Below, one piece after another: positions 2,858 through 26,073 of a stretch of DNA of 32,000 bases; position 1 is the stretch's first letter; every line of letters begins with the position of its first letter. Both the position numbers and the translations under genes were made by a program. The notes beneath the pieces were generated by a model. That model was not told the origin of the DNA and made no database searches. It saw only the letters and a list, made by a program, of their open reading frames with translations. Source of the DNA: Aliivibrio fischeri ES114 (GTDB taxonomy: Bacteria; Pseudomonadota; Gammaproteobacteria; Enterobacterales; Vibrionaceae); the NCBI RefSeq assembly GCF_000011805.1, contig NC_006841.2; one strand, given 5' to 3'.

Positions 2858-3370
2858 CATAAGGTAGATAAACTAGATGATTCAACAAGTTGGGTCAACA
2901 TTTCCTTACAAATGTGCGTAAATTGTTACCAATAGATAGTAGGTTCACATTTTTGGTGAAGCGATAGAGGCACTTATCGAAAATTAACTGTTTTTATATT
3001 TTCGTTTTTAGAAATAAAATTAATGACAATTATTATATGTAATGCAATGTTGCATATAATATCAAAAAATATATTTTTATATAAACATTGGTAGTCTCAT
3101 AAGTTGTTGTATTTAATGACTTTTATTGTGTTGGTGATTATTCTTCAACTGTTCCCTCTAATTCAAACAATATAATTAACTAAGTAATTACGTATAATTT
3201 GATTGATTATTCGTATGGAGTATATTTCTCTCACCTAACTAAACCAATTAATCAAATCAATAATAATAGATTTATTGTTAGTTAGATTTTGTTTCATATA
3301 ACCATGTTTACTTCAAATTAATGAAGAGAGCATTAAGTAGTGTTAATCATTAACTACCGGAAATAAAAAG

Positions 3371-3994
3371 ATGAAAAAAATATATTTAGCTGCGTTTGTA
3401 TTTGGTGTTTTTTCTGTATCGTCTTCAGCTGAAATGATGCCTTATGTTGGGGGAAATATTGGTATTGGTGGTATTACTTCACCAGATGCTGATATTGACA
3501 ATATGAACTATTCTCAAGAGTCAGGAAAGTTTGCTTGGAGCTTGAATACTGGTCTATTATTTAACTCAGAAATGAATAATAAATTTCAATACGGTGCAGA
3601 AGTGAGTTATTCGACCTATGCAACAAATGAAAATCGTTTTGAAAATTTGAAGTTTGACTATGATGGCTACAACATTGCTGCATTAGGTGTAGCAAAGTAC
3701 AATTTCAATAATAAGTGGAGTATTTTTGGTAAAGCGGGTGCAGCTTATACAGTTCAAGAGCTAACAAGTAATGTAAACGTTTTTAATAAAAAAGAATCGA
3801 AAGTATTGCCAAAAATCGGTTTAGGTGCATCGTATAACATTACAGATAACTTTGCGATTAACGCTAGCTTCGAGCATATCTTTGGTGATGACTTAGCCGA
3901 GTTTACGAATAAACCAAATAACCATCAATTGTCGGACTACACAAATGTAGGATCGGTAAGTACCATGTATATTGGTATGGGTTATTCATTCTAA
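3371..3994 (+). CDS. Small outer-membrane beta-barrel protein (OmpA-like/OmpW-like 8-strand class)
   Basis: Signal peptide MKKIYLAAFVFGVFSVSSSAEM. The body shows alternating aromatic/glycine beta-strand periodicity and ends in a C-terminal ...GMGYSF with terminal Phe, typical of BAM substrates. Confidence 0.7.
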   Translation: MKKIYLAAFVFGVFSVSSSAEMMPYVGGNIGIGGITSPDADIDNMNYSQESGKFAWSLNTGLLFNSEMNNKFQYGAEVSYSTYATNENRFENLKFDYDGYNIAALGVAKYNFNNKWSIFGKAGAAYTVQELTSNVNVFNKKESKVLPKIGLGASYNITDNFAINASFEHIFGDDLAEFTNKPNNHQLSDYTNVGSVSTMYIGMGYSF

Positions 3995-4121
3995 TTATTT
4001 ATAGTCTTATTTTTTAAGTTTAGATTTTACCTTGTAAATAAGACGTAAACTAATTAACAATGAAGTAGGGTATTGCCTATTTCTGTTATGAAATAGGCTG
4101 CTCTATATTTGCTCAAAAATT

Positions 4122-4180
4122 AAGTATAAACAGCATTTCTGTATTACGTTTGTTCTTTTTGTGTTTATACTTTGTTTTTT
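4122..4180 (+). terminator. Probable terminator of the OMP gene (third of three hairpins)
   Basis: 11-bp perfect stem aagtataaaca (4122-4132) / tgtttatactt (4162-4172), followed by tgtttttt. The loop is long (29 nt). Two further hairpins lie at 4004-4044 (9-bp stem) and 4075-4098 (gcctatttc/gaaataggc, 6-nt loop). Confidence 0.45.
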
Positions 4181-4304
4181 ATTGGTTTTGGTTTTGAACA
4201 AAGTTAACGAATATAGATAAGTTGGTCTCAATATATTGACAATAAAGATGAATAGGTTTATTTATGACTTGTATTTAATTCGATAACTGTTAAGTCAGGA
4301 TGAT

Positions 4305-4916
4305 ATGGTTTTTAAACTCAATGAAATCTATTGGGATCCAGCAACAAAAAAATTGTACGATACGCTAGAAGATGCAGTTAATGGTAATAACGAATATGGT
4401 TCAACAACGCCTTTAGTTTCTGCAATTCTGACTTTGTTAATAAAAGAACATCCTTCTATTTGTAAAAATGAACATATTAAAGATGCTCTTTGGGGGACTC
4501 AGTGGATATCAAATGAAAGCATTCCTCAGTTAATTAAAAGAACAAGAGTATCAATAAAAGATACGAATAGACATGTTATCGAAAATGTAAAAGGCAATGG
4601 TTATAAAATAAACAATGTAGAAGAGATTAGAATAAATTCAAATAGCATACAATGCACAGAGAAAAAAACGTCACATTCTAAACTAAAAGAAACATCTATT
4701 TTTTTATTTTCAATCATCATTTTCATTTTATCTAGTTCAGCATTAATCTTTTGTATAGAAAAACATGTGTTTTACGATCTAATTCCTTTAGAAGAGATAA
4801 AAAAAGTCAAAGATTTTGATTTAATTAAAATCTCTGAAGATAAGTTTTTAATTAAGACTAAAGACCAAGAGTGTGAATTGAACCTTAAAAATAAAATTGC
4901 TCGATGTAAAATATGA
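4305..4916 (+). CDS. TcpP/ToxR-like membrane-anchored winged-helix transcriptional regulator
   Basis: N-terminal OmpR/PhoB-type wHTH (ALWGTQWISNESIPQLIKRTR ... VIENVKGNGYKI), closely resembling my recollection of V. cholerae TcpP. There is a single TM helix (SIFLFSIIIFILSSSALIFCI) and a short periplasmic tail with two Cys, C190 and C201, 11 residues apart, the second being 3 residues from the C-terminus. Confidence 0.75.
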   Translation: MVFKLNEIYWDPATKKLYDTLEDAVNGNNEYGSTTPLVSAILTLLIKEHPSICKNEHIKDALWGTQWISNESIPQLIKRTRVSIKDTNRHVIENVKGNGYKINNVEEIRINSNSIQCTEKKTSHSKLKETSIFLFSIIIFILSSSALIFCIEKHVFYDLIPLEEIKKVKDFDLIKISEDKFLIKTKDQECELNLKNKIARCKI

Positions 4917-5302
4917 AAAGTCAAATATCGAAAACATTAATTGTTTTTTCTGTAATTAATTTACTCATAATAATAATATGGCATAAATTTTATCGAGTCG
5001 ATTTAGTTGGAACAATAACAATAAATGAAAAACAAGTTAACTATGTAAAGTATGAAAAGTATTTAGATTCTGTCAATGTAGTTAATACTAAGTATAGTGA
5101 TGATATAGCTGTTCCTGCAACAAGTAGCGCAACAAAGTATTTTGTCGATTATAATTTATCTCAAGGTAAATTATATGCATATGATGGAACAAATTATTAT
5201 ATTTTAAATATATATTCATTAGGGGACTCTTGTTTTGTAACTCTTCCAGCAGGAAGTGGTAGTCTCAAAAAAATTGGTTTTTCTTGCAAATACAATAATT
5301 AA
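4913..5302 (+). CDS. TcpH/ToxS-like single-pass periplasmic partner protein
   Basis: The start overlaps the upstream stop (ATGA at 4913-4916). The 129-aa product has an N-terminal TM helix (TLIVFSVINLLIIIIW) and a periplasmic domain with two Cys (C107, C125) 18 residues apart. Size and topology match the TcpH/ToxS/VtrC partner class. Confidence 0.55.
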   Translation: MKSQISKTLIVFSVINLLIIIIWHKFYRVDLVGTITINEKQVNYVKYEKYLDSVNVVNTKYSDDIAVPATSSATKYFVDYNLSQGKLYAYDGTNYYILNIYSLGDSCFVTLPAGSGSLKKIGFSCKYNN

Positions 5303-5354
5303 TTTATTTTCAATAATTTGATTGTTATTTATAGAGTGTGTTTAGGGTACATAA

Positions 5355-7046
5355 TTGAATTCAACAATTTCTTTCTTATATCAACCAAAAGTACAGAATG
5401 GAAGTATTATCAGTGTTGAAGCTTTACTAAGAGTTCCTGGTGTTACAAATATTGAGAGCTATGTTTCAATGGTAACAAATAAACCTTTGTTTGATTATAC
5501 AATAATAAGGAAAGTATTATCAGATAGAAGGGAATATCACGAAAACATTGGTTACTCTTTCCCTGTATCTATAAACATTTCGATACAGAGTTTAGAATCA
5601 GATTATTTTATTAATAAAACATCTAAGTTATTGAAAAATGAACCTAATGTAACGTTGGAGATAACTGAAAATGACAGTTATTTATCTTTAGAACGTGTTA
5701 AAGAATCGATGGGAATACTTAAATCATTAGGTGTTAAGTTTTCTTTAGATGATTTTGGTAAAGGCTTTTCAGATATTGAACAAGTATTGTCATTAGACCT
5801 TGATGAAATCAAAGTGGATGGTTCTTTAGTTAATGATATTGAAAACAATTTTTATAAGTTTAGACATTTAAAATATACGCTAGATGAATTAGAAGATATC
5901 AGTAACTTTAATATTGTTATTGAGCGGGTTGAGAATAAAAAACAAGTTAACTTAATTGAATCCCTTGGAAAAAAAGTATCATACCAAGGATACTTTTTTT
6001 ATAAACCAATGAATTTATTTGACTTAACAATTGCGACACCAGAACCGCATAAAGAAGAAAAACATGAACCTAAGTTATTGTTAGAAAAATTGATTTATGA
6101 GTTGATCAAAACCGATAATGATAATGAGTGCGCACAGTTAGTTAATGATATTCACTCTGTAGATATATTTAATAATCTTGGTTCCAAGGTTTGTGACAGT
6201 TTAACTATAACAGAAGTAAAAAAAAGCATACTAAAAAAATACAATAAGATAGCGCTTAACCCGAATAGTCCTGAAAATTTGTTTTTCAAATCATATCTTA
6301 ATTGTATGAGTCGCTTAGTCATAATCCGAGATTCTGAAGGTAATGCTTTATTCAATAACCAAGCCCATATTAATTTTATGAATGTGGACTTGGTAGGAAT
6401 GCCTCTAGAAAGCATTTATGAAAAATTTGAACAATACGAAAGCTGTATTGCAATAGATAAGGAGTTGATTGAATCAAAATCCAACTTCTTAGCGGTAAGA
6501 GAAGTTGTCGACTTTGATGGGCAAACTAAATCGTATTATACGTTTAGGCAGAAAATTAACCATTATGGAAAAACACTAATAATTACGATTGTTTATGATG
6601 AAGATGATAGAGATTCGTTTCCTAGGGATGCATTAACAGATTGTTTTGATAGAACCATTTTGAACAGCTACTACATGAATCAATTTAACATGGTTGCTTT
6701 CATTGATATGGATGGGTTTAAAAAGATTAATGATAACTTCAGTCATAAGCTAGGTGACGACTGTTTAAGCAAATTTGTTATGTATTTAAAACATGAATTA
6801 AGAAAGGAAGACCTTATCATAAGATACGGTGGTGATGAATTTTTGATTTTTACTCAATGGGATGACCGACATACATTTGAAAGTCGCTTAAATCTGATAA
6901 GGAATAAAGTCGAAAAGCTGTTTAAATCAAACAACATAGACTTGTCATTTTCATATGGCATTGAAGATTTATCAAAAGGTATGGAAATTGCGATTAACTG
7001 TGCGGATGAAAAAATGTATGCTGACAAAAGCAGAAAATTACAGTGA
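5355..7046 (+). CDS. Cytoplasmic c-di-GMP turnover protein with inverted domain order EAL-PAS-GGDEF
   Basis: EAL motifs are all present: FLYQPKV, VEALLRV, VSINIS, LEITEND, FSLDDFGKGFS, EIKVDGS, ERVEN, YQGYFFYKP. The central region is PAS-like. The C-terminal GGDEF domain has FIDMDGFKKINDNFSHKLGDD, RYGGDEF (GGDEF at 6828-6842) and an I-site RKED (6801-6812) five residues upstream. The only start that keeps the EAL domain is TTG 5355, immediately after an in-frame stop, with AGGG 8 nt upstream. Confidence 0.85.
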   Translation: MNSTISFLYQPKVQNGSIISVEALLRVPGVTNIESYVSMVTNKPLFDYTIIRKVLSDRREYHENIGYSFPVSINISIQSLESDYFINKTSKLLKNEPNVTLEITENDSYLSLERVKESMGILKSLGVKFSLDDFGKGFSDIEQVLSLDLDEIKVDGSLVNDIENNFYKFRHLKYTLDELEDISNFNIVIERVENKKQVNLIESLGKKVSYQGYFFYKPMNLFDLTIATPEPHKEEKHEPKLLLEKLIYELIKTDNDNECAQLVNDIHSVDIFNNLGSKVCDSLTITEVKKSILKKYNKIALNPNSPENLFFKSYLNCMSRLVIIRDSEGNALFNNQAHINFMNVDLVGMPLESIYEKFEQYESCIAIDKELIESKSNFLAVREVVDFDGQTKSYYTFRQKINHYGKTLIITIVYDEDDRDSFPRDALTDCFDRTILNSYYMNQFNMVAFIDMDGFKKINDNFSHKLGDDCLSKFVMYLKHELRKEDLIIRYGGDEFLIFTQWDDRHTFESRLNLIRNKVEKLFKSNNIDLSFSYGIEDLSKGMEIAINCADEKMYADKSRKLQ

Positions 7047-8389
7047 GTTCTATTAGATATAAAGCATTAAGACTAAAAAGAATCGGCATTGTAGTGATGC
7101 TATCGTTTATTTATATGAGTGTCGGATATTTTATTTTTGATTTAAGCAATAACCTTACTGAAGAAAGAAATAAGACGAATATGCGACACTTATTGAAAAA
7201 ATATGAAAGTGAAATTTTAATAAAAGTAAATGAATACTTAACTTTATCAAAAGTTTATAAGTATATGCTTTTTAAGAATGATTCTTTTATATCAAAAAAC
7301 GACTTCACTTCAATATCTAAGAATTTAATCGAAAAAAACAAAGTAATTAAGAGTTTGCAATTAGCTCCTAATGGTACAGTGAAATATGCATATCCTGAGA
7401 AAGGAAATGAAAATGTGTATATCGATTTGTTTGCAGATAAAAAAAGAAGGGGAGATGCTATTTATGCCAGAGATAATAGAGTAAGTATCATGTCTGAACC
7501 ACTTGAGTTATTTCAAGGTGGGATTGGACTAATAATTCGTACTCCTATTTTTGTCGGCAAGGATTTTAATACATTTTGGGGTTTTAGCATCGTTATACTT
7601 AAGGTAAATGATTTTTTAAATACTTTATCATTACCTGAGTTATGTGATGGTGGATATAACTATAAACTGAGTGTTATACAAAGAAATAGCAATAACAAAA
7701 TTGTTATTAGTGAATCATCATCTGATGACTTAGTAAATGCAGTTGAGCATGAATTTAGTGTTCTTAACCAAAATTGGCTGATATCAGTGGGTTCTCCAGG
7801 TAAATGGATTAATGAATTAGAATATACCTACAAAACGTATATTTTAGTTTTCTTTGTCTTTGCTTTATCACTTATAACCTACATGTTTTACCGGTTGTTG
7901 ATAAAAAAAGAAAAAATGTATGAACTGTCTTATATTGATTCCTTAACAGGTCTTTATAATCGAAGGGCATTTGATAAAGATGCTAAAAAGTGTTTTAAGA
8001 GTTCAATTTTGTTTTTCTGTGATTTAAATGGTTTTAAAAAGATCAATGATATTTATGGTCATGAAGTCGGAGACCAACTACTCATTGAAGTATCTAAAAG
8101 GATGCGCTCTTTTATCGATAGTAAAGGAACTATATATAGATTAGGCGGCGATGAATTTTCAATACTCTTAAATAAAAATGATAATGTTGATGTTCATGTT
8201 TTTATTAATGAGTTATTTGAAATAATATCTGAGTCTTTATTAATTAGTGATGTTGTAATAAATATAAGCATTAGTACAGGTTACAGTGTTTATCCAGTTG
8301 ATGGCTTAATTCTAGAGGATTTAATCCGTATAGCTGATAAAAGAATGTATCAAGCAAAGTTTCAATATAAAAATAGAAATAAAGTATAA
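7043..8389 (+). CDS. Membrane diguanylate cyclase with periplasmic (CHASE-like) sensor domain
   Basis: The GTG start overlaps the upstream TGA (GTGA 7043-7046). Two TM helices flank a ~230-aa periplasmic domain (LQLAPNGTVKYAYPEKGNE...SEPLELFQGGIGLIIRTPIF), which I recall as CHASE-like. The GGDEF domain has FCDLNGFKKINDIYGHEVGD and RLGGDEF (8144-8158). No RxxD is present at the I-site position. Confidence 0.85.
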   Translation: MSSIRYKALRLKRIGIVVMLSFIYMSVGYFIFDLSNNLTEERNKTNMRHLLKKYESEILIKVNEYLTLSKVYKYMLFKNDSFISKNDFTSISKNLIEKNKVIKSLQLAPNGTVKYAYPEKGNENVYIDLFADKKRRGDAIYARDNRVSIMSEPLELFQGGIGLIIRTPIFVGKDFNTFWGFSIVILKVNDFLNTLSLPELCDGGYNYKLSVIQRNSNNKIVISESSSDDLVNAVEHEFSVLNQNWLISVGSPGKWINELEYTYKTYILVFFVFALSLITYMFYRLLIKKEKMYELSYIDSLTGLYNRRAFDKDAKKCFKSSILFFCDLNGFKKINDIYGHEVGDQLLIEVSKRMRSFIDSKGTIYRLGGDEFSILLNKNDNVDVHVFINELFEIISESLLISDVVINISISTGYSVYPVDGLILEDLIRIADKRMYQAKFQYKNRNKV

Positions 8390-8423
8390 ATCTAAAGTTC
8401 TGTTTCTTATTTATCTTATATAG

Positions 8424-8458
8424 ATAGTCATTTCCCTTTTTTGGGATGACTATTTTTT
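8424..8458 (+). terminator. Rho-independent terminator between the signalling operon and the receptor-synthase operon
   Basis: Stem atagtcat(tt)ccc / gggatgactat (11 bp with a 2-nt bulge), loop tttttt, followed by ttttt. It lies only about 50 nt upstream of the next start codon. Confidence 0.65.
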
Positions 8459-8509
8459 ATCAAACGTTAATACCAATTATTTTTGGTTTGCTGCACAAAT
8501 GGTTATTTT

Positions 8510-9862
8510 ATGAAGATGGAAAGTTCAGTGTCTATTCCTGTTTATGTTATCGGTGAATCTAAATCTGTGTATGGAAGTGATATTAATATAATTCATGTTA
8601 AGAGTGCTGATGCTCTTTTATTACACGAGCCAGCTATTTGTATTGTGTCATTACCATCTGAAGAACAAGATAGAACATTAGAATATCTGCATTCTAAATT
8701 ACAGCTATGGAATTGGCATATATATGTATTAAAAGCGAGCAAGTTAAGCTCTCATCTTTCCGATGGAGTATGGACACCGACTAATGTGGCTGAACAGTGG
8801 ATGCTACATAAAGCGAAGTTAGCTCTGATAAAAGATGAACCTCTGGATAAACTTCTTGCTTGGCTTTGGTTAGGCACTGAAAGGTGTTTAAAACCATTGT
8901 GTGATAGCAGTAAAAAAGAACTTTATCACTACCCTCTGATTACTGCGTACATTGGCTATAAAAATGCATCCAATAATTATCTTCAATTAGAAACTAAAAG
9001 AGGTTTTCTAAAGAAAGAGTATACAGTGGATCGAATTCGATTATGTCCATCGTGCAATAGCGGTCATCAAAACTATATTGAAACATGTCCATCATGTAAG
9101 AGTGTCGATATAGAAGAGATGGTTTCTCTACATTGTTTTACTTGCGGGCATGTAGGGAAACAAGACCACTTTATGCAACGTGGGAAATTAGAGTGTCCTA
9201 CTTGTTTAACACAGTTGCGTCATATTGGAGTGGATTACGACAGACCGCTTGAAAGCTATAAGTGTTTAGATTGTGATTATAGTTTTTCAGAATCGGTTGC
9301 TCGTGTTCGTTGCTTGTCTTGTACCGACAGTAATGAGATTGATGATTTAATCACCCGTCATATCAGTACCTATAAAGCGGGCGATCAAGTAAAAAACTTA
9401 ATGATGTATGGTCATCAATCTTTTCATCAAGAGTTGACGTTAAAAGGACTTATTGATGAGGATTCGTTTGATAATTTGCTTGTATGGATAAATAAATTGG
9501 CAATCCGTCATCAACACTCACATATCTTATTAGGTATAAAGCTCGCGGGTATTGAAGAATATTCTGCTCAATTTGGTGAAACTAAATTGATGCAATTGAT
9601 TGACCAGATATCAAATGATCTTAACTCAATACTACGTGATACCGATATTTGCTGCCAGTATCGATCAGATATGATCCTATTATTGATGCCGATGACTCCA
9701 ATTGACTCATTACCGGTGTTGCAAAAGAAGATTGAACTTATTGCTGGAAAAATTGAGTCAGAGTTAGTGCTTCTGAATGTTCATATATGGTCTTTGCCTA
9801 ATGTATCCCTTCAGGATGATGCGGCAAAGTGGTTAGTTGATGAGCTTGGTACTATTGAGTAA
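8510..9862 (+). CDS. Triple zinc-ribbon protein with C-terminal degenerate GGDEF domain retaining the I-site (candidate c-di-GMP receptor)
   Basis: Three CxxC-x10-14-CxxC pairs lie between nt 9044 and 9322. The C-terminal GGDEF-like fold has the active-site loop replaced by RSDMI (9662-9676), with RDTD (9635-9646) exactly 5 residues upstream. Its stop overlaps the GT2 start (TAATG). The start is uncertain: ATG 8510 is chosen, TTG 8483 or ATG 8516 are possible, and no strong RBS is visible. Confidence 0.75.
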   Translation: MKMESSVSIPVYVIGESKSVYGSDINIIHVKSADALLLHEPAICIVSLPSEEQDRTLEYLHSKLQLWNWHIYVLKASKLSSHLSDGVWTPTNVAEQWMLHKAKLALIKDEPLDKLLAWLWLGTERCLKPLCDSSKKELYHYPLITAYIGYKNASNNYLQLETKRGFLKKEYTVDRIRLCPSCNSGHQNYIETCPSCKSVDIEEMVSLHCFTCGHVGKQDHFMQRGKLECPTCLTQLRHIGVDYDRPLESYKCLDCDYSFSESVARVRCLSCTDSNEIDDLITRHISTYKAGDQVKNLMMYGHQSFHQELTLKGLIDEDSFDNLLVWINKLAIRHQHSHILLGIKLAGIEEYSAQFGETKLMQLIDQISNDLNSILRDTDICCQYRSDMILLLMPMTPIDSLPVLQKKIELIAGKIESELVLLNVHIWSLPNVSLQDDAAKWLVDELGTIE

Positions 9863-11175
9863 TGAGTGAATTTGAATACATTTTTTACTCAATAATAGGG
9901 ATGATAAGTGAAGATACAGAATTAATATTTATATTATTTCCAATCATGATCTTAATCGAAATGCCTCTATTTATTTTAGTTGCGAGCGGTGTTTTGCGTT
10001 GGTCTGTTAACTTATCAGAACTAGAAGCAACGTCATGTCCTTCAATTAGCTTTATTATTACTTGTTATGGAGAAGGGGAAGCCATTAGTGAAACGATCGA
10101 TACACTTGTCGAGCAGATTTATCCTAATAAGATAGAAATCTTAGTTGTAGTGGATGGTGCCAAACAAAATGCAGAGACTTATCAAGCAGCCTTATACGGT
10201 GCTAAAAAACATCAGCATAAGCAAATGCGGACAGTTAAAGTCATCGCTAAATGGCAAAGAGGTGGCCGTGTATCTACATTAAATGCTGGTTTATCGGAAG
10301 CAAAAAATGATTTAGTCATTAATGTTGATGGAGATACTTCATTTGACAACAACATGGCATGGGAAATGGCTAAGCAGTTTTCAGATCCAAACGTTTTAGC
10401 CTCTGGAGGTGCACTTCGTGTCCGAAATTGGGATGCTAATTTATTAACCAGAATGCAATCCCTTGAATATATGATGTCCATGCAGACGGGTAAAACTGGA
10501 ATGAGTAATTGGGGAGTCTTAAACAATATTTCTGGTGCTTTTGGTGCATTTCGGATTGAAGTGATTAAGCGAGTTGGTGGTTGGGATACTCATACGGCTG
10601 AAGATCTTGATTTAACCATGCGATTAAAACAATATAAAGGGCGACATCCAAATAGCCGTTTAGCATTTACTCCTCATTCTGTTGGGCATACTGATGCTCC
10701 AGATACGTTAAAAATATTGTTAATGCAGCGGTTACGATGGGATGGCGATTTACTTTTTCTCTTTTTAAGAAAACATAAACAGGGACTAAGTCCGAGTTTG
10801 TTAGGTTGGGGCAACTTTGTTTATACATTAGTTTATGGTGTGATTCAAAACGTGGTTCTACCATTATTAATGGCATTGTTTAGTTTATATGTTTGTTTAA
10901 GTTATCCAATTACATTTGTACTCTCAATGCTTTTGTTTATTTATCTAATATACATAACATTTATTGTTTTAACTTTTTCAATTTACATTGGTCTTGTTTC
11001 AGAAAGACCTAAAGAAGATATTAAATTATCAATATGGTTACCTCTTTATCCTATATATGCATTTTTTATGAGATTAATAACTGCATTTTCAATGGTGAAT
11101 GAAATAACCAGAAGAAGTCATGAGGAGTCAAGCATGGCACCTTGGTGGGTACTTAAACGTGGAAAAAGATTTTAA
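9862..11175 (+). CDS. Processive family-2 beta-glycosyltransferase (polysaccharide synthase, BcsA/PgaC/NodC/HAS class)
   Basis: Motifs present are DGD (10327-10335), TAED (10594-10605) and QRLRW (10726-10740). There is an N-terminal TM segment and several C-terminal TM helices. No PilZ-like extension is seen. Confidence 0.9.
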   Translation: MSEFEYIFYSIIGMISEDTELIFILFPIMILIEMPLFILVASGVLRWSVNLSELEATSCPSISFIITCYGEGEAISETIDTLVEQIYPNKIEILVVVDGAKQNAETYQAALYGAKKHQHKQMRTVKVIAKWQRGGRVSTLNAGLSEAKNDLVINVDGDTSFDNNMAWEMAKQFSDPNVLASGGALRVRNWDANLLTRMQSLEYMMSMQTGKTGMSNWGVLNNISGAFGAFRIEVIKRVGGWDTHTAEDLDLTMRLKQYKGRHPNSRLAFTPHSVGHTDAPDTLKILLMQRLRWDGDLLFLFLRKHKQGLSPSLLGWGNFVYTLVYGVIQNVVLPLLMALFSLYVCLSYPITFVLSMLLFIYLIYITFIVLTFSIYIGLVSERPKEDIKLSIWLPLYPIYAFFMRLITAFSMVNEITRRSHEESSMAPWWVLKRGKRF

Positions 11176-11180
11176 ATATT

Positions 11181-12224
11181 ATGAAAGTAAAATTTCACTT
11201 AGAAAAAGATAAGCAACCAACATCTGATAATGGAATGAAAATTATATACGGAAGTGCTAAGAGAGGTGGGTATAGATTTCGTTGGTATTGTATTTTAGCA
11301 TTAGTGTTAAGTCCTATATTAATAATGGCATACGTTTTTTTTCAACAATATATACTTACTTTAGCACCAGGGATTATTACAACAAGTCCAGTAGTGATAA
11401 CCGCTCCTCAAGATAGTATGGTTACAGCTATAAATGTCAAAGAAGGTAATCAGATTACCTATGGTCGGAATGTTTTAGAGTTAAATGATCCTGTATTAGA
11501 TTCAGATATTCAGTTTATTAAAACAGAGTTAACTAATTTAAATAAAAGGAAGTCTAAAGTACAACATGATCTAAAGTCTTATTTGTTAGCAATTAGAAAT
11601 GCGAAAGATAATTTAGAAAGCATAAAGAAAATAAAACTGAATTATGACAAGTTCATTAAAGAAGGGAAAGTATCACAAGTTGATTATGCCAATATCATTG
11701 GTATGTACAATAGTGCGCAAAATACGTTAACTAGTGCGGACATAGGATACCAAAAGGCACTATTAGACAGTGTGCAAGTTGAATTAGCTGGTGGTATTGC
11801 TCAAGTAGTTCGCTCATTAAATCAAGAGTTAGTTACCAAGTTAAGCCAGAAAAAACTACTAAGTATTCATTCACCATATGACGGAAATATCATAGAAATT
11901 AATACGGTAGTAGGACAAAGAATAAAAAAGGGTGATGTATTAGCGACGATTGCATCTAAGGCTGATCCATTTGTTATAGCGTACTTAGAACCTAAATTTA
12001 TTGAAAAGGCCAAAGAAGGTAGTGTCGTTACCGTCATACTTCCCAACCGTGAAAGATTAAAGGGTAATGTATCTTTAGCTATCGAAACCACAACTAAATT
12101 ACCAGCTCAGTTGGCTAAACCGTTTGAGGGACCAAAATCGTTGTTAAAAGTTAAAGTCACATTAAAGAAAAAAATAACTAAAGAGCAATGGGTAGAGGGG
12201 ATGCCAGTACAAGTTTCTTTTTAA
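11181..12224 (+). CDS. HlyD-family membrane fusion (periplasmic adaptor) protein
   Basis: Short cytoplasmic tail and one TM helix (WYCILALVLSPILIMAYVFF), followed by a lipoyl-like hairpin (VVITAPQDSMVTAINVKEGNQI ... IHSPYDGNIIEINTVVGQRIKKGDVLATIA) interrupted by a long predicted coiled coil. A C-terminal beta-rich domain follows. The gene starts 5 nt after the GT2 stop. Confidence 0.8.
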   Translation: MKVKFHLEKDKQPTSDNGMKIIYGSAKRGGYRFRWYCILALVLSPILIMAYVFFQQYILTLAPGIITTSPVVITAPQDSMVTAINVKEGNQITYGRNVLELNDPVLDSDIQFIKTELTNLNKRKSKVQHDLKSYLLAIRNAKDNLESIKKIKLNYDKFIKEGKVSQVDYANIIGMYNSAQNTLTSADIGYQKALLDSVQVELAGGIAQVVRSLNQELVTKLSQKKLLSIHSPYDGNIIEINTVVGQRIKKGDVLATIASKADPFVIAYLEPKFIEKAKEGSVVTVILPNRERLKGNVSLAIETTTKLPAQLAKPFEGPKSLLKVKVTLKKKITKEQWVEGMPVQVSF

Positions 12225-12292
12225 TATAACTATAAGGTTAATAAAATAAGAGGAAGCGACGATACATTTTATTTATAGATAGAGGTTAGAAA

Positions 12293-12541
12293 ATGAAAGT
12301 AGATTATATTCACTTAACAAATAAAATTTTAGATTCATGTGAATTTTTAAGGTTCGCAATAGAGAAAGATAATGAATTATTTAAAAATAACAAAGATACA
12401 ATATTAAAATTAATAAGTCTTAATGATTGGCTTATTAGTGAGTTATCAAGCTCTAATCTTAAAGATGAACAGCGTGAATTAATGCTAAGAAATTGTTTAA
12501 CTCTTAGTGAAATTACTAAAGAAGTTAGATTAGCTCTATAA
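12293..12541 (+). CDS. Small (82 aa) predicted all-helical protein of unknown function
   Basis: Good RBS (agagg, 7 nt before the ATG), co-directional with and located between the MFP and MCP genes. I recognise no motif. Confidence 0.5.
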   Translation: MKVDYIHLTNKILDSCEFLRFAIEKDNELFKNNKDTILKLISLNDWLISELSSSNLKDEQRELMLRNCLTLSEITKEVRLAL

Positions 12542-12606
12542 AATAAAATACTTACTATTATAAATTAGGATCTTAATGTTCTATTAGGATTATGGACGCG
12601 TGTAAT

Positions 12607-14235
12607 ATGAAAAACATTTCATTGAGAAATAAAATACTATTCCTAGTGGCATTTAATGCAACAGGTTTATTTGTGGCTCTTAATATTATTTATATGAACT
12701 ATGTAGATAATGATAAGACTGAACAGTTTTTATTTAGACAGGTAATTCAATCGTCAGAAATTTTTGATAATTTCGAAAAGAAACTAATTTCGTTAAGAAG
12801 AACAGATTTAGCTTTGATATCTATTCGATTTGAAGATGAAGAAGAGGTAACTGCAAGAGATAAGTTAATCTATGACATTAATTCATTATTAAATTCATAT
12901 AGTGAGTTTGATTTAGATGTGATAAAAAAAGAGAAAACACAATTAGCAACGCTAAACAATGAAATTAACGCATATGTTAATTACATCAATGATATTAGAG
13001 ATCGTCGATTATCAGAACCAAGAGCGAAACTAGTTGGTGATAGTCTCGGATTATATGAAGAAATTAATAATAATATTAGCTACTTATCTAATAAGATAAA
13101 TATCTTCCTTGAAGAATACAGACAGACATCTAAACAAGACCGATTGAACACACTGTATTTTGCAATATTTATTATTGTATCGATAACACTGGTATCAATC
13201 TTAAGTGGTTTATACATCTCAAAAGATTTAAATCGACGTATCGCGTTAATTAACTCATCATTAGATCAGTTTATTTCGTTAGATTTGAGAAGTGGGAAAG
13301 TGTGTAGCTTCATTGATAGTAACGATTTTATTAATGACGAAATCGGTAGCATTATGATGTCTATTCGCTCTTTCAGATTAAAAATTGTGACAGTAATTAA
13401 TGCAGTTAAAGAGAGTATTGAGGTTAGTAATGATGCATTTAGTTTGATGAATGAGCAGTCTAAAGAAAACGAGAAGGCCATTGTTCAACAGCTTAACTCT
13501 GTTGATATGCTTGCAACAGCGATCAATGAAATGCAATGTGCATCAAGTGAGATTACAAATAATATCAATAACTCCGCGAACTTTACTTCTGACGCATCTA
13601 AAGAGTGTAATCAAACTAAGCAAATGGTTTCTAATACCTCTGAAGTGATTAATCTAGCTTCAAATGAGATCGATGAATGTAATGCCTTGATTGCGGAATT
13701 ACGTAACGACAGTAATAAGATTTCAAGTGTTTTAGATATGATCAGTAATATTGCGGATCAAACAAACTTATTAGCACTAAACGCAGCAATTGAAGCAGCA
13801 AGAGCTGGTGAGCAAGGAAGAGGTTTTGCGGTAGTTGCTGATGAAGTTCGTGTATTAGCGCAAAAAACACAACATTCTACGATTGAGATTAATAATATCA
13901 TTTCAAACTTACAGGCTAAAACTCATGATGTAAGTGAAAAAATGGAGTTGAGTCAGACAACGATTAAAGAGTGTGTAGAACAGTCGACAATATCTCGAAA
14001 TAATATTGAAATTGTAGATAACAACTTAAACTCAATTTCAGATATGAGTCATCAAATATCCACAGCAAGTGAAGAGCAGAGCTGTGTTATTGAAGAAATT
14101 AACGGAAACGCGATTAACGTGAGAGACATGTCTCAAGTGTGTATGGATGTATCGAGTGTGATTTCTGAACAGGTTAAGAACATGAATAAGAGCATTTCTA
14201 ATTTGTCGAAAAACGTAGAGCAGTTTAAATTGTAG
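12607..14235 (+). CDS. Methyl-accepting chemotaxis protein
   Basis: Two TM helices flank a ~160-aa helical periplasmic domain. The highly conserved signalling hairpin is present ([39 protein letters not shown]). The start is set at MKNISLRNK (12607); an alternative ATG lies at 12592. Confidence 0.9.
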
Positions 14236-14247
14236 TGATGAAGATAA

Positions 14248-14279
14248 AGCTATAAGGCGTGGTGCCTTATAGCTTTTTT
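14248..14279. terminator. Rho-independent terminator after the MCP gene (convergent with gltS)
   Basis: Perfect 11-bp stem agctataaggc / gccttatagct with loop gtggt, followed by a T6 run on the plus strand. The T-tract on the minus strand is weaker. Confidence 0.8.
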
Positions 14280-16956: not shown

Positions 16957-18663
16957 TTAAAAATCTTCAGGGCACGAGAATTCAACCGTCTCATTGGTTG
17001 TCGGGTGTTTGAATTTTAAATATCCAGCATGTAAATGCAGCCTATCTGCTTTAAAACCATACAAATCATCCCCCACAATAGGGGTATTCAATCCCGCTTG
17101 ATGAGCGCAATGAACACGCAATTGATGCGTTCGCCCCGTATGTGGGTAAAGGTGTACTTTGGTTCGTTTGCCTTCTTGAGCGATGACTTGGTAATGTGTT
17201 TCTGCTTTACGGCCACTTTTATGGTTGACCATTTGGCGAGGACGATCTTCCATATCACCTGTTAACGGTAAATTAATCGTCCCATTATCGGTTTCAATAT
17301 TACCTTCAAGTAATGCGGTATAACGCTTTTCAACCGTACGTTCGATAAATTGTTTTTGAACCTGTTTATTCGATTCAGCAGTTAATGTAAGAACCAATAA
17401 ACCAGAGGTCGACATATCTAAACGATGAACAATCAATGGTCCTGTTGCGTTAGGGTAACGAGCTTGAATACGAGCATGAACAGAATCTGAAATGTATTTT
17501 CCAGATACGGATAAAAACTCGACGGGCTTATTGACGATAACAAGCACATCGTCTTCATATACGATCTCTAATTCTTTACCATAAGACGGAGTTTGCTCTA
17601 ATGGGCTGCCGTCTGTGCTTATTCCTTCAAGCATGTGCTCTAGAATTTCAAAACATTTACTTTGGCATACCGGATAAAGGTTTTTATGCTGGCGAATTTG
17701 ATCATAAGGAGACGCTCCCCACCAAAATTCCCCTAAGGCTAAAGGCGTATAACCCAATGTAAACGCAGTTTGTAAAAGTTTAGGACAGTTTTGTTCACTG
17801 GAATTGGCAATAGGCTCTTGTTTCAGTTGGTCTGAATCACTGCGCTTAAATAAGTCGAATAGGCTTTTAATTACGCCATTTGAATTAAGAAATTGGGTTG
17901 CTTTTAACGTATCAATATGACGTTGTTGTACCAAATTATCATACGTTAATTCCGCTTGTGAAATGCGATACTCATTTTCTTTGAGTTGAGTAGAGAGCGT
18001 CAAAAGCGTGTTTTGCCAATCTTGCTTTAATTGTTTAAATGCTCTTTTTTCTCGACTGCTTTGGTTTCCAAGCTCAGAGATAAGAGCACTTAAATCATCA
18101 GGAGTCAGAGGGGATAGAGTATTTGACTCTGCCTCTGCACGTTGTTGCTTACGTTGCTTTTTAGAGTCCGCCATAGCCTGTTGAAATTGGGTGATTTCAT
18201 GTTCAGCTTGCTGTTGATTAGCGGACAGTTTTTCTTTTAGCTCAATAAACTCTGGGTCATTTTTTAATTGATGAATATGACTTTTTAGATGTTGTAACTC
18301 TGTTCTTTGTTGAGCACAAAGAGAATCGTGATTCGTTTTATCAAAAATAGCATCAACAAAAAAATCAGGCGTGTGGCTTAATTCAGGTTGTTTATCTGCT
18401 TCTTGAGCGGCAAAAGAAGCAAGATAACCAATCTCGCCATCTTGGTTTTTAACTACCAATACACCAAACATTTTTCCGTTAACGGTAAAGTCGTGTTGCC
18501 ACTCATTTTGAGTATCTAAATAGAGTTGCAGATCATCCATTGCTAATCTTGCTAATGGGTGAGGTGTATAATAATACGGGAACGTAAAATGTTGAGGCAG
18601 AGTAATACCGTCAATATCACCAGATAAACGAATAAATTTGTGGGTTAATGTATTGTTACACAT
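16957..18663 (-). CDS. Long-form RluA-family pseudouridine synthase, paralogue 1 (about 370-aa N-terminal extension)
   Basis: The C-terminal ~200 aa carry RluA motifs (HRLDMSTSGLLVL, GRTHQLRVHCAH, HLHA). The N-terminal extension is shared with the upstream paralogue. The start is set at ATG 18663 (MCNNTL...) because it aligns with the paralogue's N-terminus and avoids a 20-nt overlap; an alternative ATG lies at 18687. Confidence 0.85.
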   Translation of the reverse strand: MCNNTLTHKFIRLSGDIDGITLPQHFTFPYYYTPHPLARLAMDDLQLYLDTQNEWQHDFTVNGKMFGVLVVKNQDGEIGYLASFAAQEADKQPELSHTPDFFVDAIFDKTNHDSLCAQQRTELQHLKSHIHQLKNDPEFIELKEKLSANQQQAEHEITQFQQAMADSKKQRKQQRAEAESNTLSPLTPDDLSALISELGNQSSREKRAFKQLKQDWQNTLLTLSTQLKENEYRISQAELTYDNLVQQRHIDTLKATQFLNSNGVIKSLFDLFKRSDSDQLKQEPIANSSEQNCPKLLQTAFTLGYTPLALGEFWWGASPYDQIRQHKNLYPVCQSKCFEILEHMLEGISTDGSPLEQTPSYGKELEIVYEDDVLVIVNKPVEFLSVSGKYISDSVHARIQARYPNATGPLIVHRLDMSTSGLLVLTLTAESNKQVQKQFIERTVEKRYTALLEGNIETDNGTINLPLTGDMEDRPRQMVNHKSGRKAETHYQVIAQEGKRTKVHLYPHTGRTHQLRVHCAHQAGLNTPIVGDDLYGFKADRLHLHAGYLKFKHPTTNETVEFSCPEDF

Positions 18664-18667
18664 GACA

Positions 18668-20368
18668 TTAAAATTCCGCTTCGACATTAAATTCCATCGG
18701 TTCTTTAGTGATAGGATGAATTAACGACAAATAACCTGCATGCAAATGTAAGCGATTTGCTTTTTTTCCATATAAACCATCACCGGTGATTGGCATATTT
18801 AAACCAAGATAATGAGCACAATGCACTCTAAGTTGATGCGTTCGACCTGTTTTAGGGTAAAGATAGACTTTGGTTTTATTCTCCTTACGCTCAATCACTT
18901 GGTAGGTGGTTTCCGCTGGTTTCCCATGCTCAAAACACACTAATTGGCGAGGGCGATCATATAAATCACCACGCATAGGCAAAGTAATTAGTCCTTCATC
19001 TTGTTCTAAAACGCCATCAAGTAGAGCTGTGTAGCGCTTTTCTACCGTTCGATTAATAAATTGTTGTTGTAAGCGTTTGTGTGCTTTTGGCGTAAGGCCT
19101 AAAACCAGTAATCCTGATGTTGCCATATCCAAGCGATGAATTATTAACCCGCCAGTTGCATCGGGGTAACGTTGTTGTATGCGTGCATAAACCGAATCGT
19201 GAATGTTTTTACCTGGAACAGATAAGAAGTCAGCTGGTTTATTGACCACAACCATAAATTCATCTTCATAGACGATTTCAAGATCTTTCCCTTCTGCTGG
19301 GTTGATAAGCAGTGGGTTCTCATCCATTTCTATTCCATCTAGCATATGACCTAAAATTGGCTGGCATTTACTCTGACATGACGCATAGAATTTTTTATGT
19401 TGGCGGATTTCAGATTTTGGGGCAATACCCCACCAAAACTCCGCCAGTGCAAGTGGTGTGAAACCATGTGCAAAGGCATATTGAAGTAATTTAGGTGCAG
19501 CGCATTCGCCGGAACCGGCTGGTGGGATCTGGTTTGGTGTATCTTTGAAAATATCGTTAAGATCTTTCTCAATACCATGTGTATTTAAAAACTTGTATTG
19601 CTGAAATAATTTCTTTTGTAATCCGTTAGATAGATTTTTTCGCTTGGTTTTTAATTCATTAAGTGCGTCTTCTAACTCATTAAGTTGGCATTGAAGGGCG
19701 TTTATTTTTTCGTCCCAAATGAGTTTAATATCACGTAAAGTATTTTTTTCTTTAACGCTTTCTTTGCCAAGTACAACTTTGAGTTGTTCTAATTCCTCTG
19801 CACTTTTTTCAGTACCATCTTGAGCTGTGATTTCAGCCGCTGCTCGTTGTGCTTTACGAGATTTTCGCCCTTCAATCATTACTTGGCGTTGAATTTCTAT
19901 CTGTTGTAGTGAGGCAGTGGTTTCGGATTGGATAGAGGTCGCTAAGTGAGATAATTGTGGATTAGCTTCGAGCTGTTTAATTGTTGCATTGATCTCTGTG
20001 ATTTCTGCAAGTTCTGTTTTGAAAAAACCGTCTTCTTCCAGCATATCAAATACAGGTGGTACAAAATAAGGGAGATGATTACTGTCAGCAATTTTGCCTG
20101 AGAAAGCGGATAAATAGCCAATTTCCCCCGTTGGTGCTTTCACTAATAATACACCAAACATTTTACCAATCGCATTGCTTTTATCACCAGATAGGCCGAA
20201 ATTATGATGCCATTCTTGTTGCGCTTCTAAGTGACGTTGTAACTCTTCTGCTGCAAGTTCACATAAAGGATGTGGTTCATAACAAAAAGGGAAAGTGAAT
20301 TTTTCAGGAAGTGTATAACCGTCGATAGGCTGAGTAAATGAAGTAAAACAAGGGTTGGAGATAGGCAT
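18668..20368 (-). CDS. Long-form RluA-family pseudouridine synthase, paralogue 2
   Basis: It has the same architecture as paralogue 1: HRLDMATSGLLVL (Asp414), GRTHQLRVHCAH, an N-terminal FTFPFCYEPHPL...GKMFGVLLV...GEIGYLSAFSG block, a ~150-aa coiled coil and the block ECAAPKLLQ...FWWG...SCQSKCQPILGHML. Confidence 0.85.
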   Translation of the reverse strand: MPISNPCFTSFTQPIDGYTLPEKFTFPFCYEPHPLCELAAEELQRHLEAQQEWHHNFGLSGDKSNAIGKMFGVLLVKAPTGEIGYLSAFSGKIADSNHLPYFVPPVFDMLEEDGFFKTELAEITEINATIKQLEANPQLSHLATSIQSETTASLQQIEIQRQVMIEGRKSRKAQRAAAEITAQDGTEKSAEELEQLKVVLGKESVKEKNTLRDIKLIWDEKINALQCQLNELEDALNELKTKRKNLSNGLQKKLFQQYKFLNTHGIEKDLNDIFKDTPNQIPPAGSGECAAPKLLQYAFAHGFTPLALAEFWWGIAPKSEIRQHKKFYASCQSKCQPILGHMLDGIEMDENPLLINPAEGKDLEIVYEDEFMVVVNKPADFLSVPGKNIHDSVYARIQQRYPDATGGLIIHRLDMATSGLLVLGLTPKAHKRLQQQFINRTVEKRYTALLDGVLEQDEGLITLPMRGDLYDRPRQLVCFEHGKPAETTYQVIERKENKTKVYLYPKTGRTHQLRVHCAHYLGLNMPITGDGLYGKKANRLHLHAGYLSLIHPITKEPMEFNVEAEF

Positions 20369-24063: not shown

Positions 24064-25059
24064 ATGAAAAAACTGAGTTTATTACTTCTGGCTTCCACCG
24101 TATCAAGTTCACTATTTGCATCAACCTTGCTCCCTGTTACGGAAAGTAATTATGAAAAAGCTGAGTCTGATTTATCGTTCAGTAATATCACTAAGTTAGT
24201 TGGGTCAAATGCTTGGTTTCATTTTCCGAAGCTAACGCCATTAGATAATCAAACAGTGGTACGAATGAACAGAGATACGATTTATTCAGGTTATGTTGCT
24301 GATGTTTCTAAAGGAGGAACCGTCACTATTCCAGATACTAATGGTCGTTATTTATCAGTGATGATTGTGCAAAATGATCACTATATCGATCAGGTATTTA
24401 CTAAGCCGGGGACTTACGAAATTAAATCTGATACTGATTTTGCGATGATAGTAGCAAGAACGCAGATAGATCCAAATGATCCGAGTGATATAAATAACGT
24501 TAAACGAATTCAAAACCAGATTACAGTAAAAACAAATTCACACAATCAACATAAATTGCCAAATTATGATTTAAAACAATTGGTTTCGTTACGTCATAAG
24601 TTGGTTGATGAAGGTAAAAAATTCGGTAGTTTGAATGGAATGCAAGGGGCAAGAGGTACTGTAGATAAGAGAATGCATTTATATGGAACAGCTCTTGGGT
24701 GGGGGCTACTTCCTGATAAAAATGCACAATATTTATCTTATTACAGTCAAGGACAAGCAGCGGATGCTACCAAGTGTATTACTGCTACTTACAAGCAACC
24801 GCCAGTGACTGGAAACGGTTTTTATTCAATCACTATTTATAATAAAGAGGGTTGGATAGCCAATGAGCGTTCTGTTTTAAATAAAAATAATCTTAAGTTC
24901 AACCAAGATGGTTCTTTTACTGTTAATTATGGAAATTGTCCTGAAAATGCCATTAATCACGTACCAGTAACAGATAATTGGGACATGTTAATGCGTGTGT
25001 ACGAGCCGGATATGAACGCATTAAAACAATATAAATTACCAAAAGTGACGGTTAAGTAG
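24064..25059 (+). CDS. Exported protein, DUF1254/DUF1214-like (paralogue 1)
   Basis: Signal peptide MKKLSLLLLASTVSSSLFA. The motifs NRDTIYS, GWGLLP..NAQY, FYSITIYNKEGW, DGSFTVNYG and NW..LMRVYEP are ones I recall as typical of DUF1254+DUF1214 proteins. The family assignment comes from memory only. Confidence 0.6.
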   Translation: MKKLSLLLLASTVSSSLFASTLLPVTESNYEKAESDLSFSNITKLVGSNAWFHFPKLTPLDNQTVVRMNRDTIYSGYVADVSKGGTVTIPDTNGRYLSVMIVQNDHYIDQVFTKPGTYEIKSDTDFAMIVARTQIDPNDPSDINNVKRIQNQITVKTNSHNQHKLPNYDLKQLVSLRHKLVDEGKKFGSLNGMQGARGTVDKRMHLYGTALGWGLLPDKNAQYLSYYSQGQAADATKCITATYKQPPVTGNGFYSITIYNKEGWIANERSVLNKNNLKFNQDGSFTVNYGNCPENAINHVPVTDNWDMLMRVYEPDMNALKQYKLPKVTVK

Positions 25060-25068
25060 AGGGTGGAT

Positions 25069-26073
25069 ATGAAATATTCTTATTTGACGTTATCAATAAT
25101 GATTTGTACTCCAGTCTTTGCAAGTACCATTGTTACGAATGATAATTTTATAGAAGCAGAAACAAACACTTATTTTTCTGAGCTGATGACTAAAGTACCA
25201 GTCAATACTTGGCGACATGCTCGTAATATATCAAGTAAAGATTTTCAATTTGTGATTCGTGAGAACCAAGATATCTTGTATTCTCATGCTGTAGTTGATG
25301 TATCAAAAGGTGCGACGCTTTTTGTCCCTCAATCTGGTCAATATCAGATAATCCAAGTGATTGATGAAAAACATTATACGGTTGCTGTTATTTATCCCGG
25401 GGAATCATTAATTATTACTCCAAATATGTTATCTAAAGGTACTCACGTTTTTTTAAATGCTAGAACAGGGATCATGACACCTGATAGTGCTGGGGTGAAA
25501 AGAGCCAACTTGTTACAAGATCAGCTAAAGATTGAAGCAAATTCTAATCGGCCTTATGTGGATAAAGACTTTGATAAAATATCTCAAGATAAATTACGTA
25601 GCGATCTCGAAAAACACGTACCAGAAGTAAAAGCATGGCTAGGGTTTGGAAATGTCACTAATAAGATGCTTGATTCTAAGCAACGCTTATATGTAGCTGC
25701 GGCTGGATGGGGAGGGTTACCTGCAAAAGATGCCTTTTATTTTCCTTTGAAGGGAACAGAAAATCAAGAATGTCGATCACTTACTTTTGATGCTCCACCA
25801 CTTAATTATGAAAAAGGTGGTTTCTGGTCGATTACTACTTATGATGATAAAGGTTGGATAGCAAAAGATAATTTTGCACTCAATAATTTCCAAGCCAAAG
25901 CGAACAACGATGGAAGTTATACGCTACATTTTAATTGCGGTGCGAAAGCCTTAAATAACATTGATACGATTGATGGAAATTGGCAACCTATGTTTAGAGC
26001 ATATTTACCACGTTCATTTGATGAAATATTGAAATATTCACAAGATTTTACGACTAATGTAACCTTCAAATAA
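25069..26073 (+). CDS. Exported protein, DUF1254/DUF1214-like (paralogue 2)
   Basis: Clearly paralogous to the upstream gene along its full length (NQDILYS, GWGGLPAKDAFY, FWSITTYDDKGW, DGSYTLHFN, NWQPMFRAYLP). The start is set at ATG 25069 with a GAGGG RBS; the listed GTG 25063 is unlikely. Confidence 0.6.
   Translation: MKYSYLTLSIMICTPVFASTIVTNDNFIEAETNTYFSELMTKVPVNTWRHARNISSKDFQFVIRENQDILYSHAVVDVSKGATLFVPQSGQYQIIQVIDEKHYTVAVIYPGESLIITPNMLSKGTHVFLNARTGIMTPDSAGVKRANLLQDQLKIEANSNRPYVDKDFDKISQDKLRSDLEKHVPEVKAWLGFGNVTNKMLDSKQRLYVAAAGWGGLPAKDAFYFPLKGTENQECRSLTFDAPPLNYEKGGFWSITTYDDKGWIAKDNFALNNFQAKANNDGSYTLHFNCGAKALNNIDTIDGNWQPMFRAYLPRSFDEILKYSQDFTTNVTFK

Follow-up and report, generated by a model that had tools for sequence, protein, structure and literature searches.

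A three-gene cluster at positions 8510–12224 of a 32-kb stretch of Aliivibrio fischeri ES114 chromosome II (contig NC_006841.2; hereafter the window) is, judging from homology and gene order, an A. fischeri member of the known, partly understood Mxd system of Shewanella. The cluster encodes a putative receptor for cyclic di-GMP (c-di-GMP), a processive family-2 glycosyltransferase (GT2), and a HlyD-type membrane fusion protein (MFP), and it very probably constitutes a c-di-GMP-responsive, synthase-dependent polysaccharide module. The original prediction for this stretch had read the trio as an exopolysaccharide module of this kind, and motifs, folds, and MxdA homology supported that functional reading; its further claim, that the composition matches no characterized system, was not sustained. 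The receptor shares 35% identity with Shewanella oneidensis MxdA over 406 aa (E = 1e-82), whereas the GT2 and the MFP match MxdB and MxdC over their full lengths, at 53% (E = 3e-178) and 30% identity (E = 5e-57), respectively. The S. oneidensis locus (L081; CP053946.1) encodes, one after another, a protein with a TackOD1 domain, a 442-aa GT2, and two proteins of 351 and 118 aa, and MxdA carries RVTD at the position aligned with RDTD, the I-site of the window receptor. Because the trio is homologous to mxdABC gene for gene and syntenic with it, it belongs to an already characterized pathway. A c-di-GMP-gated GT2–MFP module matching no characterized system would fit several gaps in the record: our literature searches found no study of a Vibrionaceae member and no characterized Vibrio homologue of the trio, the literature that we found on TackOD1 held no link to Mxd or MxdA, and the receptor is not included in the published census of 50 V. 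fischeri c-di-GMP proteins, which counts LapD, VF_0355, and VF_A0216 as degenerate. However, the homology and synteny of the three proteins with MxdABC, studied since 2006, refute this alternative unless "characterized" is taken to demand a known polymer, and we consider it highly improbable.

In Shewanella, mxdABCD is required for monolayers to develop into three-dimensional biofilms and for aggregation, and the mxdA and mxdB mutants have the same aggregation defect (PMC3691769). The same study describes MxdB as a GT2 and MxdC as efflux-pump-like, and it reports induction of the operon on starvation through ArcS/ArcA and BarA/UvrY (PMC3691769). The system is linked to c-di-GMP, and MxdA itself, according to the passages on it in two citing papers, has a degenerate GGDEF domain and binds c-di-GMP (PMC7666153, PMC11395469). 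The fourth gene product, the small membrane protein MxdD, was detected solely in S. oneidensis-like loci and is, therefore, not a feature of the wider family.

The three A. fischeri genes lie on the plus strand directly 3′ of VF_A0476 and were assigned from open reading frames (ORFs), family matches, and Mxd homology. They comprise the MxdA-type receptor gene (450 aa; 8510..9862; Pfam TackOD1 and, just below its cut-off, GGDEF), the MxdB-type GT2 gene (437 aa; 9862..11175; Pfam GT2 families), and the MxdC-type gene for a HlyD/EmrA-like MFP (347 aa; 11181..12224; Pfam HlyD_3 and NCBIfam EmrA/EmrK). Spacing is near zero, as had been claimed: the receptor stop overlaps the GT2 start in TAATG at 9860–9864, and 5 nt separate the GT2 stop codon TAA, which ends at 11175, from the MFP ATG at 11181. 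These overlapping and near-abutting starts and stops indicate that the trio would be translated together. All sequence features of the original prediction were borne out by ORF, motif, hydropathy, and Pfam checks, including the absence, across the 32 kb, of any BcsC-, PgaA-, Wza-, Wzx-, or ABC-type exporter, deacetylase, or dedicated hydrolase gene. We also found no TolC-like gene and no c-di-GMP riboswitch or other Rfam family within the window.

The trio proved to be a conserved unit. Scanning genomes with the receptor alignment yielded 80 loci, and in 77 of them the receptor, GT2, and MFP genes follow one another in this order; the other three loci end at contig ends. An order so widely shared is not a chance arrangement. 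No other gene (hydrolase, deacetylase, or porin) is conserved beside the trio across genera in the 80 loci, where the sole multigenus neighbor cluster reflects generic cross-matching of ABC transporters, and the trio is, therefore, a self-contained minimal unit. The three-gene core occurs in Vibrio, Aliivibrio, Photobacterium, Aeromonas, Plesiomonas, Pseudoalteromonas, Pseudomonas of the stutzeri type, and other genera, and its carriers include the pathogens V. parahaemolyticus, V. cholerae, V. alginolyticus, and Aeromonas species. The receptor family itself comprises 1,830 clusters (at 50% identity) at E ≤ 0.001 and 1,146 at E ≤ 1e-10, and its relatives are present in >570 species genomes. 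Among the best 150, nearly all are ∼440–480 aa long and align over both the TackOD1 and the GGDEF-like regions.

A. fischeri holds more than one such module. A second receptor–GT2–MFP trio was found in the comparison strain A. fischeri emors.2.1 (98% identity) at L005:8001-11715 (contig NZ_WOBR01000011), between lolCDE and zwf-pgl-gnd. It is about 54–63% identical to the window trio (56%, 63%, and 54%) and, when aligned to the window, ends ∼1.8 kb before the window start. On this alignment, there are two Mxd-type modules in A. fischeri, ∼14 kb apart. The receptor of the second trio keeps RDTD.

The receptor of the window trio consists of an N-terminal domain (first ∼105 aa), a TackOD1 domain (residues 106–289; 8825..9376, plus strand; Pfam, 2.9e-70), and a degenerate GGDEF-fold domain (residues ∼315–450; 9452..9859, plus strand; AlphaFold model and Foldseek). 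TackOD1 was named from archaeal response regulators and is without known function (PMC5847659). Here, it corresponds to the Zn ribbon claimed earlier and contains six CxxC pairs (residues 179–271; nt 9044–9322, plus strand), identified by motif search and alignment. All 12 of these cysteines are invariant in an alignment of 26 family members with 33–76% identity. A crude hydropathy scan detected no transmembrane segments. We also considered a receiver (REC)-like N-terminal domain, which was rejected: a profile comparison of the first 108 residues with CheY, Spo0F, PhoB, and NtrC, the sequences of which were entered by hand, gave a probability of 0.3%.

The C-terminal domain combines a lost signature with a retained I-site. 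In the AlphaFold model of the receptor (predicted local distance difference test [pLDDT] 84.8), the C-terminus adopts a GGDEF fold, and the top Foldseek matches of this domain against the PDB were all GGDEF/diguanylate cyclase domains, with E values down to 1.4e-7 and template modeling (TM) scores of 0.7–0.8 relative to the target (0.74 for 4urg and 0.79 for 6khu). The GG[D/E]EF signature of an active diguanylate cyclase is absent from the receptor, where RSDMI stands in its place (9662..9676, plus strand; motif and alignment), a predicted dead A-site; in the 26-sequence alignment, this position has decayed to xxDxL as the family consensus. The I-site RxxD is present as RDTD (residues 376–379; 9635..9646, plus strand; motif and alignment), its only occurrence in the receptor, and within the family D379 does not vary, whereas conservation of R376 is at least 90%. 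The fold match, the retained RxxD, and the lost signature together support the earlier description of a degenerate GGDEF domain with an intact I-site. In MxdA (L081:8001-9389), the residues NVDEF (358–362), which we take to be the motif given in older papers as its GGDEF-like signature, align with residues 347–351 of the window receptor; the true signature position (TRDGL in MxdA and RSDMI in the window) lies ∼35 residues further downstream. From this alignment, NVDEF instead appears to match the DxDxF strand found in GGDEF domains.

We weighed two roles for such a receptor. It could be mainly a c-di-GMP hub or sink that modulates cyclases and CheY signaling, rather than an allosteric switch of the synthase. 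MxdA is said to control c-di-GMP levels "indirectly" (PMC3691769, PMC3409153), and passages in the citing papers name CheY3 and the cyclase PdgA as its interaction partners (PMC7666153, PMC11395469), as a hub would have. However, every locus of sufficient length keeps the receptor gene strictly coupled to the GT2 gene, in most cases through an overlap of stop and start codons, and the aggregation defect shared by the Shewanella mxdA and mxdB mutants likewise ties the receptor to the synthase; we regard a role mainly as hub or sink as quite unlikely. Given an Mxd-type module, it is fairly probable that sensing at the I-site directly activates the GT2.

The GT2 carries the processive motifs where they had been read (DGD at 10327–10335, TAED at 10594–10605, and QRLRW at 10726–10740), and these catalytic motifs are invariant in 77 homologues. 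Transmembrane clusters lie at both ends of the protein (residues ∼14–49 and 319–381; crude hydropathy scan). The sequence lacks RxxxR and [DN]xSxxG and matches only GT2 families in Pfam (general GT2 and chitin-synthase families), in line with the earlier claim that it bears no PilZ or other extension; PilZ had no Pfam match on any of the three trio proteins. The best NCBIfam match was PgaC_IcaA (TIGR03937; E = 5.6e-44, residues 48–429), an equivalog model against which the GT2 scored 150.7 bits, below the curated cut-off of 422.3. The GT2 also matched NodC and chitin synthase models, and no NCBIfam match to a cellulose-synthase model was found. In its AlphaFold model (pLDDT 76), the fold is best matched by hyaluronan synthases (E = 2.4e-14, TM score up to 0.66), followed by BcsA and Chs1/chitin synthases. 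With D, DxD, (T)ED, Q(R/Q)xRW, and a GT-A domain joined to a transmembrane channel, the protein is, on its motifs and modeled fold, of the processive membrane synthase class, and cellulose synthases are more distant from it than PgaC, NodC, and the hyaluronan and chitin synthases. Since the PgaC match is far below its cut-off and NodC, chitin, and hyaluronan synthases are also close, family membership does not decide the identity of the polymer.

These same matches leave room for a smaller product, a short secreted NodC-like oligosaccharide or a periplasmic glycan that would pass through an efflux-pump-like conduit. The NodC and chitin synthase matches stand alongside that to PgaC, TolC-type conduits mostly carry small molecules or unfolded proteins, and no isolated Mxd polymer was found in the literature examined. 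Nevertheless, the GT2 fold and channel resemble the polymer-translocating hyaluronan synthase and BcsA, Shewanella mxd mutants lose the three-dimensional biofilm matrix and aggregation, and TolC-dependent export of a true polymer, mixed-linkage glucan (MLG), is documented, all of which make a small product improbable. A polysaccharide product is the preferred reading. One further feature of the GT2 is its C-terminal tail RRSHEESSMAPWWVLKRG (residues 417–434; 11110..11163, plus strand; tail motif RRSHEESSMAPWWV), which is nearly invariant over the 77 homologues and, thereby, marks the family; residues 419–437 have low model confidence, and the tail is disordered in the monomer model.

The third protein has the layout of a single-span HlyD-type MFP, as predicted, with a cytoplasmic N-terminal tail that is partly conserved among homologues, one transmembrane segment (residues 33–59; hydropathy), and a periplasmic body. 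Pfam assigned HlyD_3 (2.9e-13), HlyD_D23, and Biotin_lipoyl_2, and the best NCBIfam matches were to the EmrA/EmrK family, with type_I_hlyD families also matching. For the outer-membrane exit, which the original prediction left open and for which the window carries no TolC-like gene, the operons of other genera narrow the possibilities. Twenty loci of Pseudomonas, Stutzerimonas, Marinobacter, and Paucimonas have an extra gene of ∼640–700 codons placed precisely between the GT2 and MFP genes, and its product matched the Pfam OEP (TolC) family in 13 of the 14 orthologues scanned (best E = 2.8e-12). Precedents exist in the GT2–HlyD system BgsBA, a glucan system that needs TolC (PMC13438883), and in the synthase–HlyD–TolC system described in cyanobacteria (PMC8892547). 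Together with these precedents, the embedded OEP gene makes a tripartite, efflux-pump-like exit the best-supported route, and by this analogy export through a TolC-type outer-membrane channel is slightly favored, given an Mxd-type module. As none is encoded in the window, Vibrionaceae would need a TolC encoded elsewhere.

The MFP could also act as an Alg44-like periplasmic copolymerase or scaffold, with the polymer leaving by another porin or staying cell associated. The Alg8/Alg44 pair is a GT2 with an MFP-like partner that works without TolC (PMC8892547), and in ∼57 non-Pseudomonas loci no outer-membrane factor gene accompanies the trio. We consider this arrangement unlikely, in view of the 20 loci that have a TolC-like gene directly between their GT2 and MFP genes, the best MFP family matches to TolC-dependent EmrA/HlyD adaptors, and the TolC dependence of MLG synthesis by BgsBA. 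The embedded OEP-type protein (L060:10674-12788 and orthologues in 19 other loci) has an extra conserved C-terminal region of ∼250 aa (e.g., FDALHLDLEVEQLGWPVP) with many invariant Trp residues and no Pfam, NCBIfam, or PDB sequence match. This region could be a polymer-processing or plug domain.

Taken together, a three-step mechanism can be proposed. First, the soluble MxdA-type receptor would bind c-di-GMP, as published for Shewanella MxdA, presumably at the conserved RxxD I-site of its dead GGDEF fold. The receptor would then activate the MxdB-type GT2, which would polymerize a sugar nucleotide and thread the growing chain through its own transmembrane channel; as speculation, the receptor might dock on the GT2 C-terminal tail and on the MFP's cytoplasmic tail. 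Finally, the MFP would join the synthase to a TolC-type outer-membrane channel in the manner of a tripartite efflux pump.

Several points weigh against this scheme. The receptor scored 23.7 bits with the Pfam GGDEF model, 0.1 bit under the cut-off of 23.8 (PF00990 is precomputed for many of its homologues), and we infer its use of the I-site from the conserved motif. For the OEP-type protein, NCBIfam and PDB sequence searches returned no match, so the TolC-like assignment stands on Pfam OEP, and with no TolC-like gene in the window, the case for TolC in Vibrionaceae is carried over from what other genera show. In the literature examined, we found no chemical definition of the Mxd product and no definition of its outer-membrane route. 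The Aliivibrio trio is known here from its genes alone. In the published ES114 overexpression screen, moreover, neither VF_A0475 nor VF_A0476, the two c-di-GMP enzymes encoded next to the trio, gave a Congo-red (cellulose) or motility phenotype, although all 28 predicted cyclases raised the c-di-GMP reporter. The original prediction had these two enzymes feeding the module; the missing phenotype is compatible with such a local, dedicated role and equally with inactivity in the laboratory.

These two genes belong to a low-GC block at ∼3000–14250 (26–34% in most 1-kb windows and ∼36% over 9000–11000, with flanks at roughly 36–43%) that also contains the trio. The published ES114 primers A0475_F/A0475_R and A0476_F/A0476_R match the window with 0 mismatches, which fixes the identity of VF_A0475, an EAL-GGDEF protein (5355..7046, plus strand; Pfam), and of VF_A0476, a predicted CHASE-GGDEF diguanylate cyclase (7043..8389, plus strand; Pfam), and places the trio directly 3′ of the latter. 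The longest VF_A0476 ORF begins at GTG 7043, overlapping the VF_A0475 stop, whereas the published construct begins at ATG 7097; the true start is, therefore, uncertain. Between VF_A0476 and the receptor gene, a hairpin followed by a T-run (8422..8461, plus strand; RNA fold −20.1 kcal/mol, z = −2.3), which a simple consensus terminator scan missed, is a probable intrinsic terminator. Its position 5′ of the receptor gene suggests that the trio has its own promoter and is transcribed separately from VF_A0476.

At the left edge of the block, Pfam identified a small outer-membrane β-barrel of the eight-stranded type (3371–3994, plus strand; OMP_b-brl and OmpA_membrane), which is too small for a BcsC/PgaA-type exporter. 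It is followed by a ToxR-like, membrane-anchored winged helix-turn-helix regulator (Trans_reg_C; 4305–4916, plus strand) and, with a 4-nt overlap, a ToxS-like small single-transmembrane protein (4913–5302, plus strand). Aliivibrio genomes conserve this pair together with the trio, and it is a possible regulator of the low-GC block. Downstream of the trio lie an 82-aa ORF (12293..12541, plus strand; no Pfam match), which is 47–86% conserved in four Aliivibrio loci and possibly cotranscribed with the trio, and a methyl-accepting chemotaxis protein gene (12592..14235, plus strand; Pfam MCPsignal), which is conserved with the trio in Aliivibrio. The 82-aa ORF was considered as a candidate MxdD and rejected, as the two show no similarity. 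The first strong terminator 3′ of the trio in the terminator scan (14246–14276) lies beyond the chemoreceptor gene. The enzyme, regulator, and chemoreceptor neighbors accompany the trio only in the four Aliivibrio loci. A chemoreceptor gene 3′ of the trio is worth noting given the reported binding of MxdA to CheY3 in Shewanella.

Elsewhere in the window, two tandem overlapping genes on the minus strand (16957–18687 and 18668–20368) each encode a protein of ∼570 aa in which a long N-terminal region without a family match precedes a C-terminal pseudouridine synthase domain. A DUF1254/DUF1214 tandem pair (24064–25059 and 25063–26073, plus strand) lies beside a LysR-type regulator gene.

Mxd has so far been treated as specific to Shewanella, and the same core is now seen across many gammaproteobacterial genera. 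A. fischeri is a squid symbiont in which polysaccharide studies have usually dealt with cellulose and Syp; its two Mxd-type trios add candidates for matrix systems that respond to c-di-GMP, and the receptors of both are missing from the published c-di-GMP protein census. The embedded TolC-like gene suggests a way, open to testing, for the Mxd product to cross the outer membrane, and recognition of MxdA as a TackOD1 protein gives a first functional handle on that domain. A broader and more tentative possibility is that Mxd-type trios form a separate, widespread secretion class with a PgaC/hyaluronan synthase-like GT2 and an MFP–TolC conduit, in which TackOD1 docks CheY-type receivers. Archaeal REC–TackOD1 fusions and the chemoreceptor gene 3′ of the Aliivibrio trio fit such docking, as does the binding of CheY3 to MxdA in Shewanella, reported from two-hybrid assays in passages of the citing papers. 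If true, a single polysaccharide synthase would receive input from both chemotaxis phosphosignaling and c-di-GMP.

Compared with other synthase-dependent systems, the trio combines familiar elements in its own way. Like PgaCD/IcaAD, it has a GT2 for which PgaC_IcaA is the best-scoring curated family, but PgaD, the PgaB deacetylase, and the PgaA porin are not encoded in the window. Unlike BcsA- and Alg44-type systems, it has no PilZ domain on the synthase or its partner. PelD, Listeria PssE, Bacillus YdaK, and BcsE are dead GGDEF folds that keep RxxD and serve as c-di-GMP sensors for glycosyltransferases, and the window receptor resembles them in principle. It differs from them in being soluble and in carrying an N-terminal domain and the TackOD1 triple zinc ribbon, and it has no detectable relation to them beyond the GGDEF fold. 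The c-di-GMP-activated, TolC-requiring BgsBA system of Sinorhizobium meliloti likewise pairs a GT2 with a HlyD-type MFP (PMC13438883). However, bgsBA is bicistronic with no separate receptor gene described, and BgsA is described as a cellulose synthase homologue (PMC13438883), whereas the window GT2 is nearest to PgaC and NodC. In the Thermosynechococcus cellulose system, an efflux-pump-like MFP and TolC similarly replace BcsB and BcsC (PMC8892547), but that system uses a BcsA-homologue synthase and a BcsZ homologue, and no stand-alone GGDEF-type receptor is described for it. The closest counterpart is S. oneidensis MxdABCD (SO_4180–SO_4177), which has the same gene order and tight coupling and in which MxdA also combines TackOD1 with RxxD. 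In contrast to S. oneidensis, A. fischeri lacks an MxdD homologue with its trio, carries two paralogous trios, and has the copy described here within a low-GC block, alongside VF_A0475 and VF_A0476 as well as genes for a ToxR-like regulator and a chemoreceptor.

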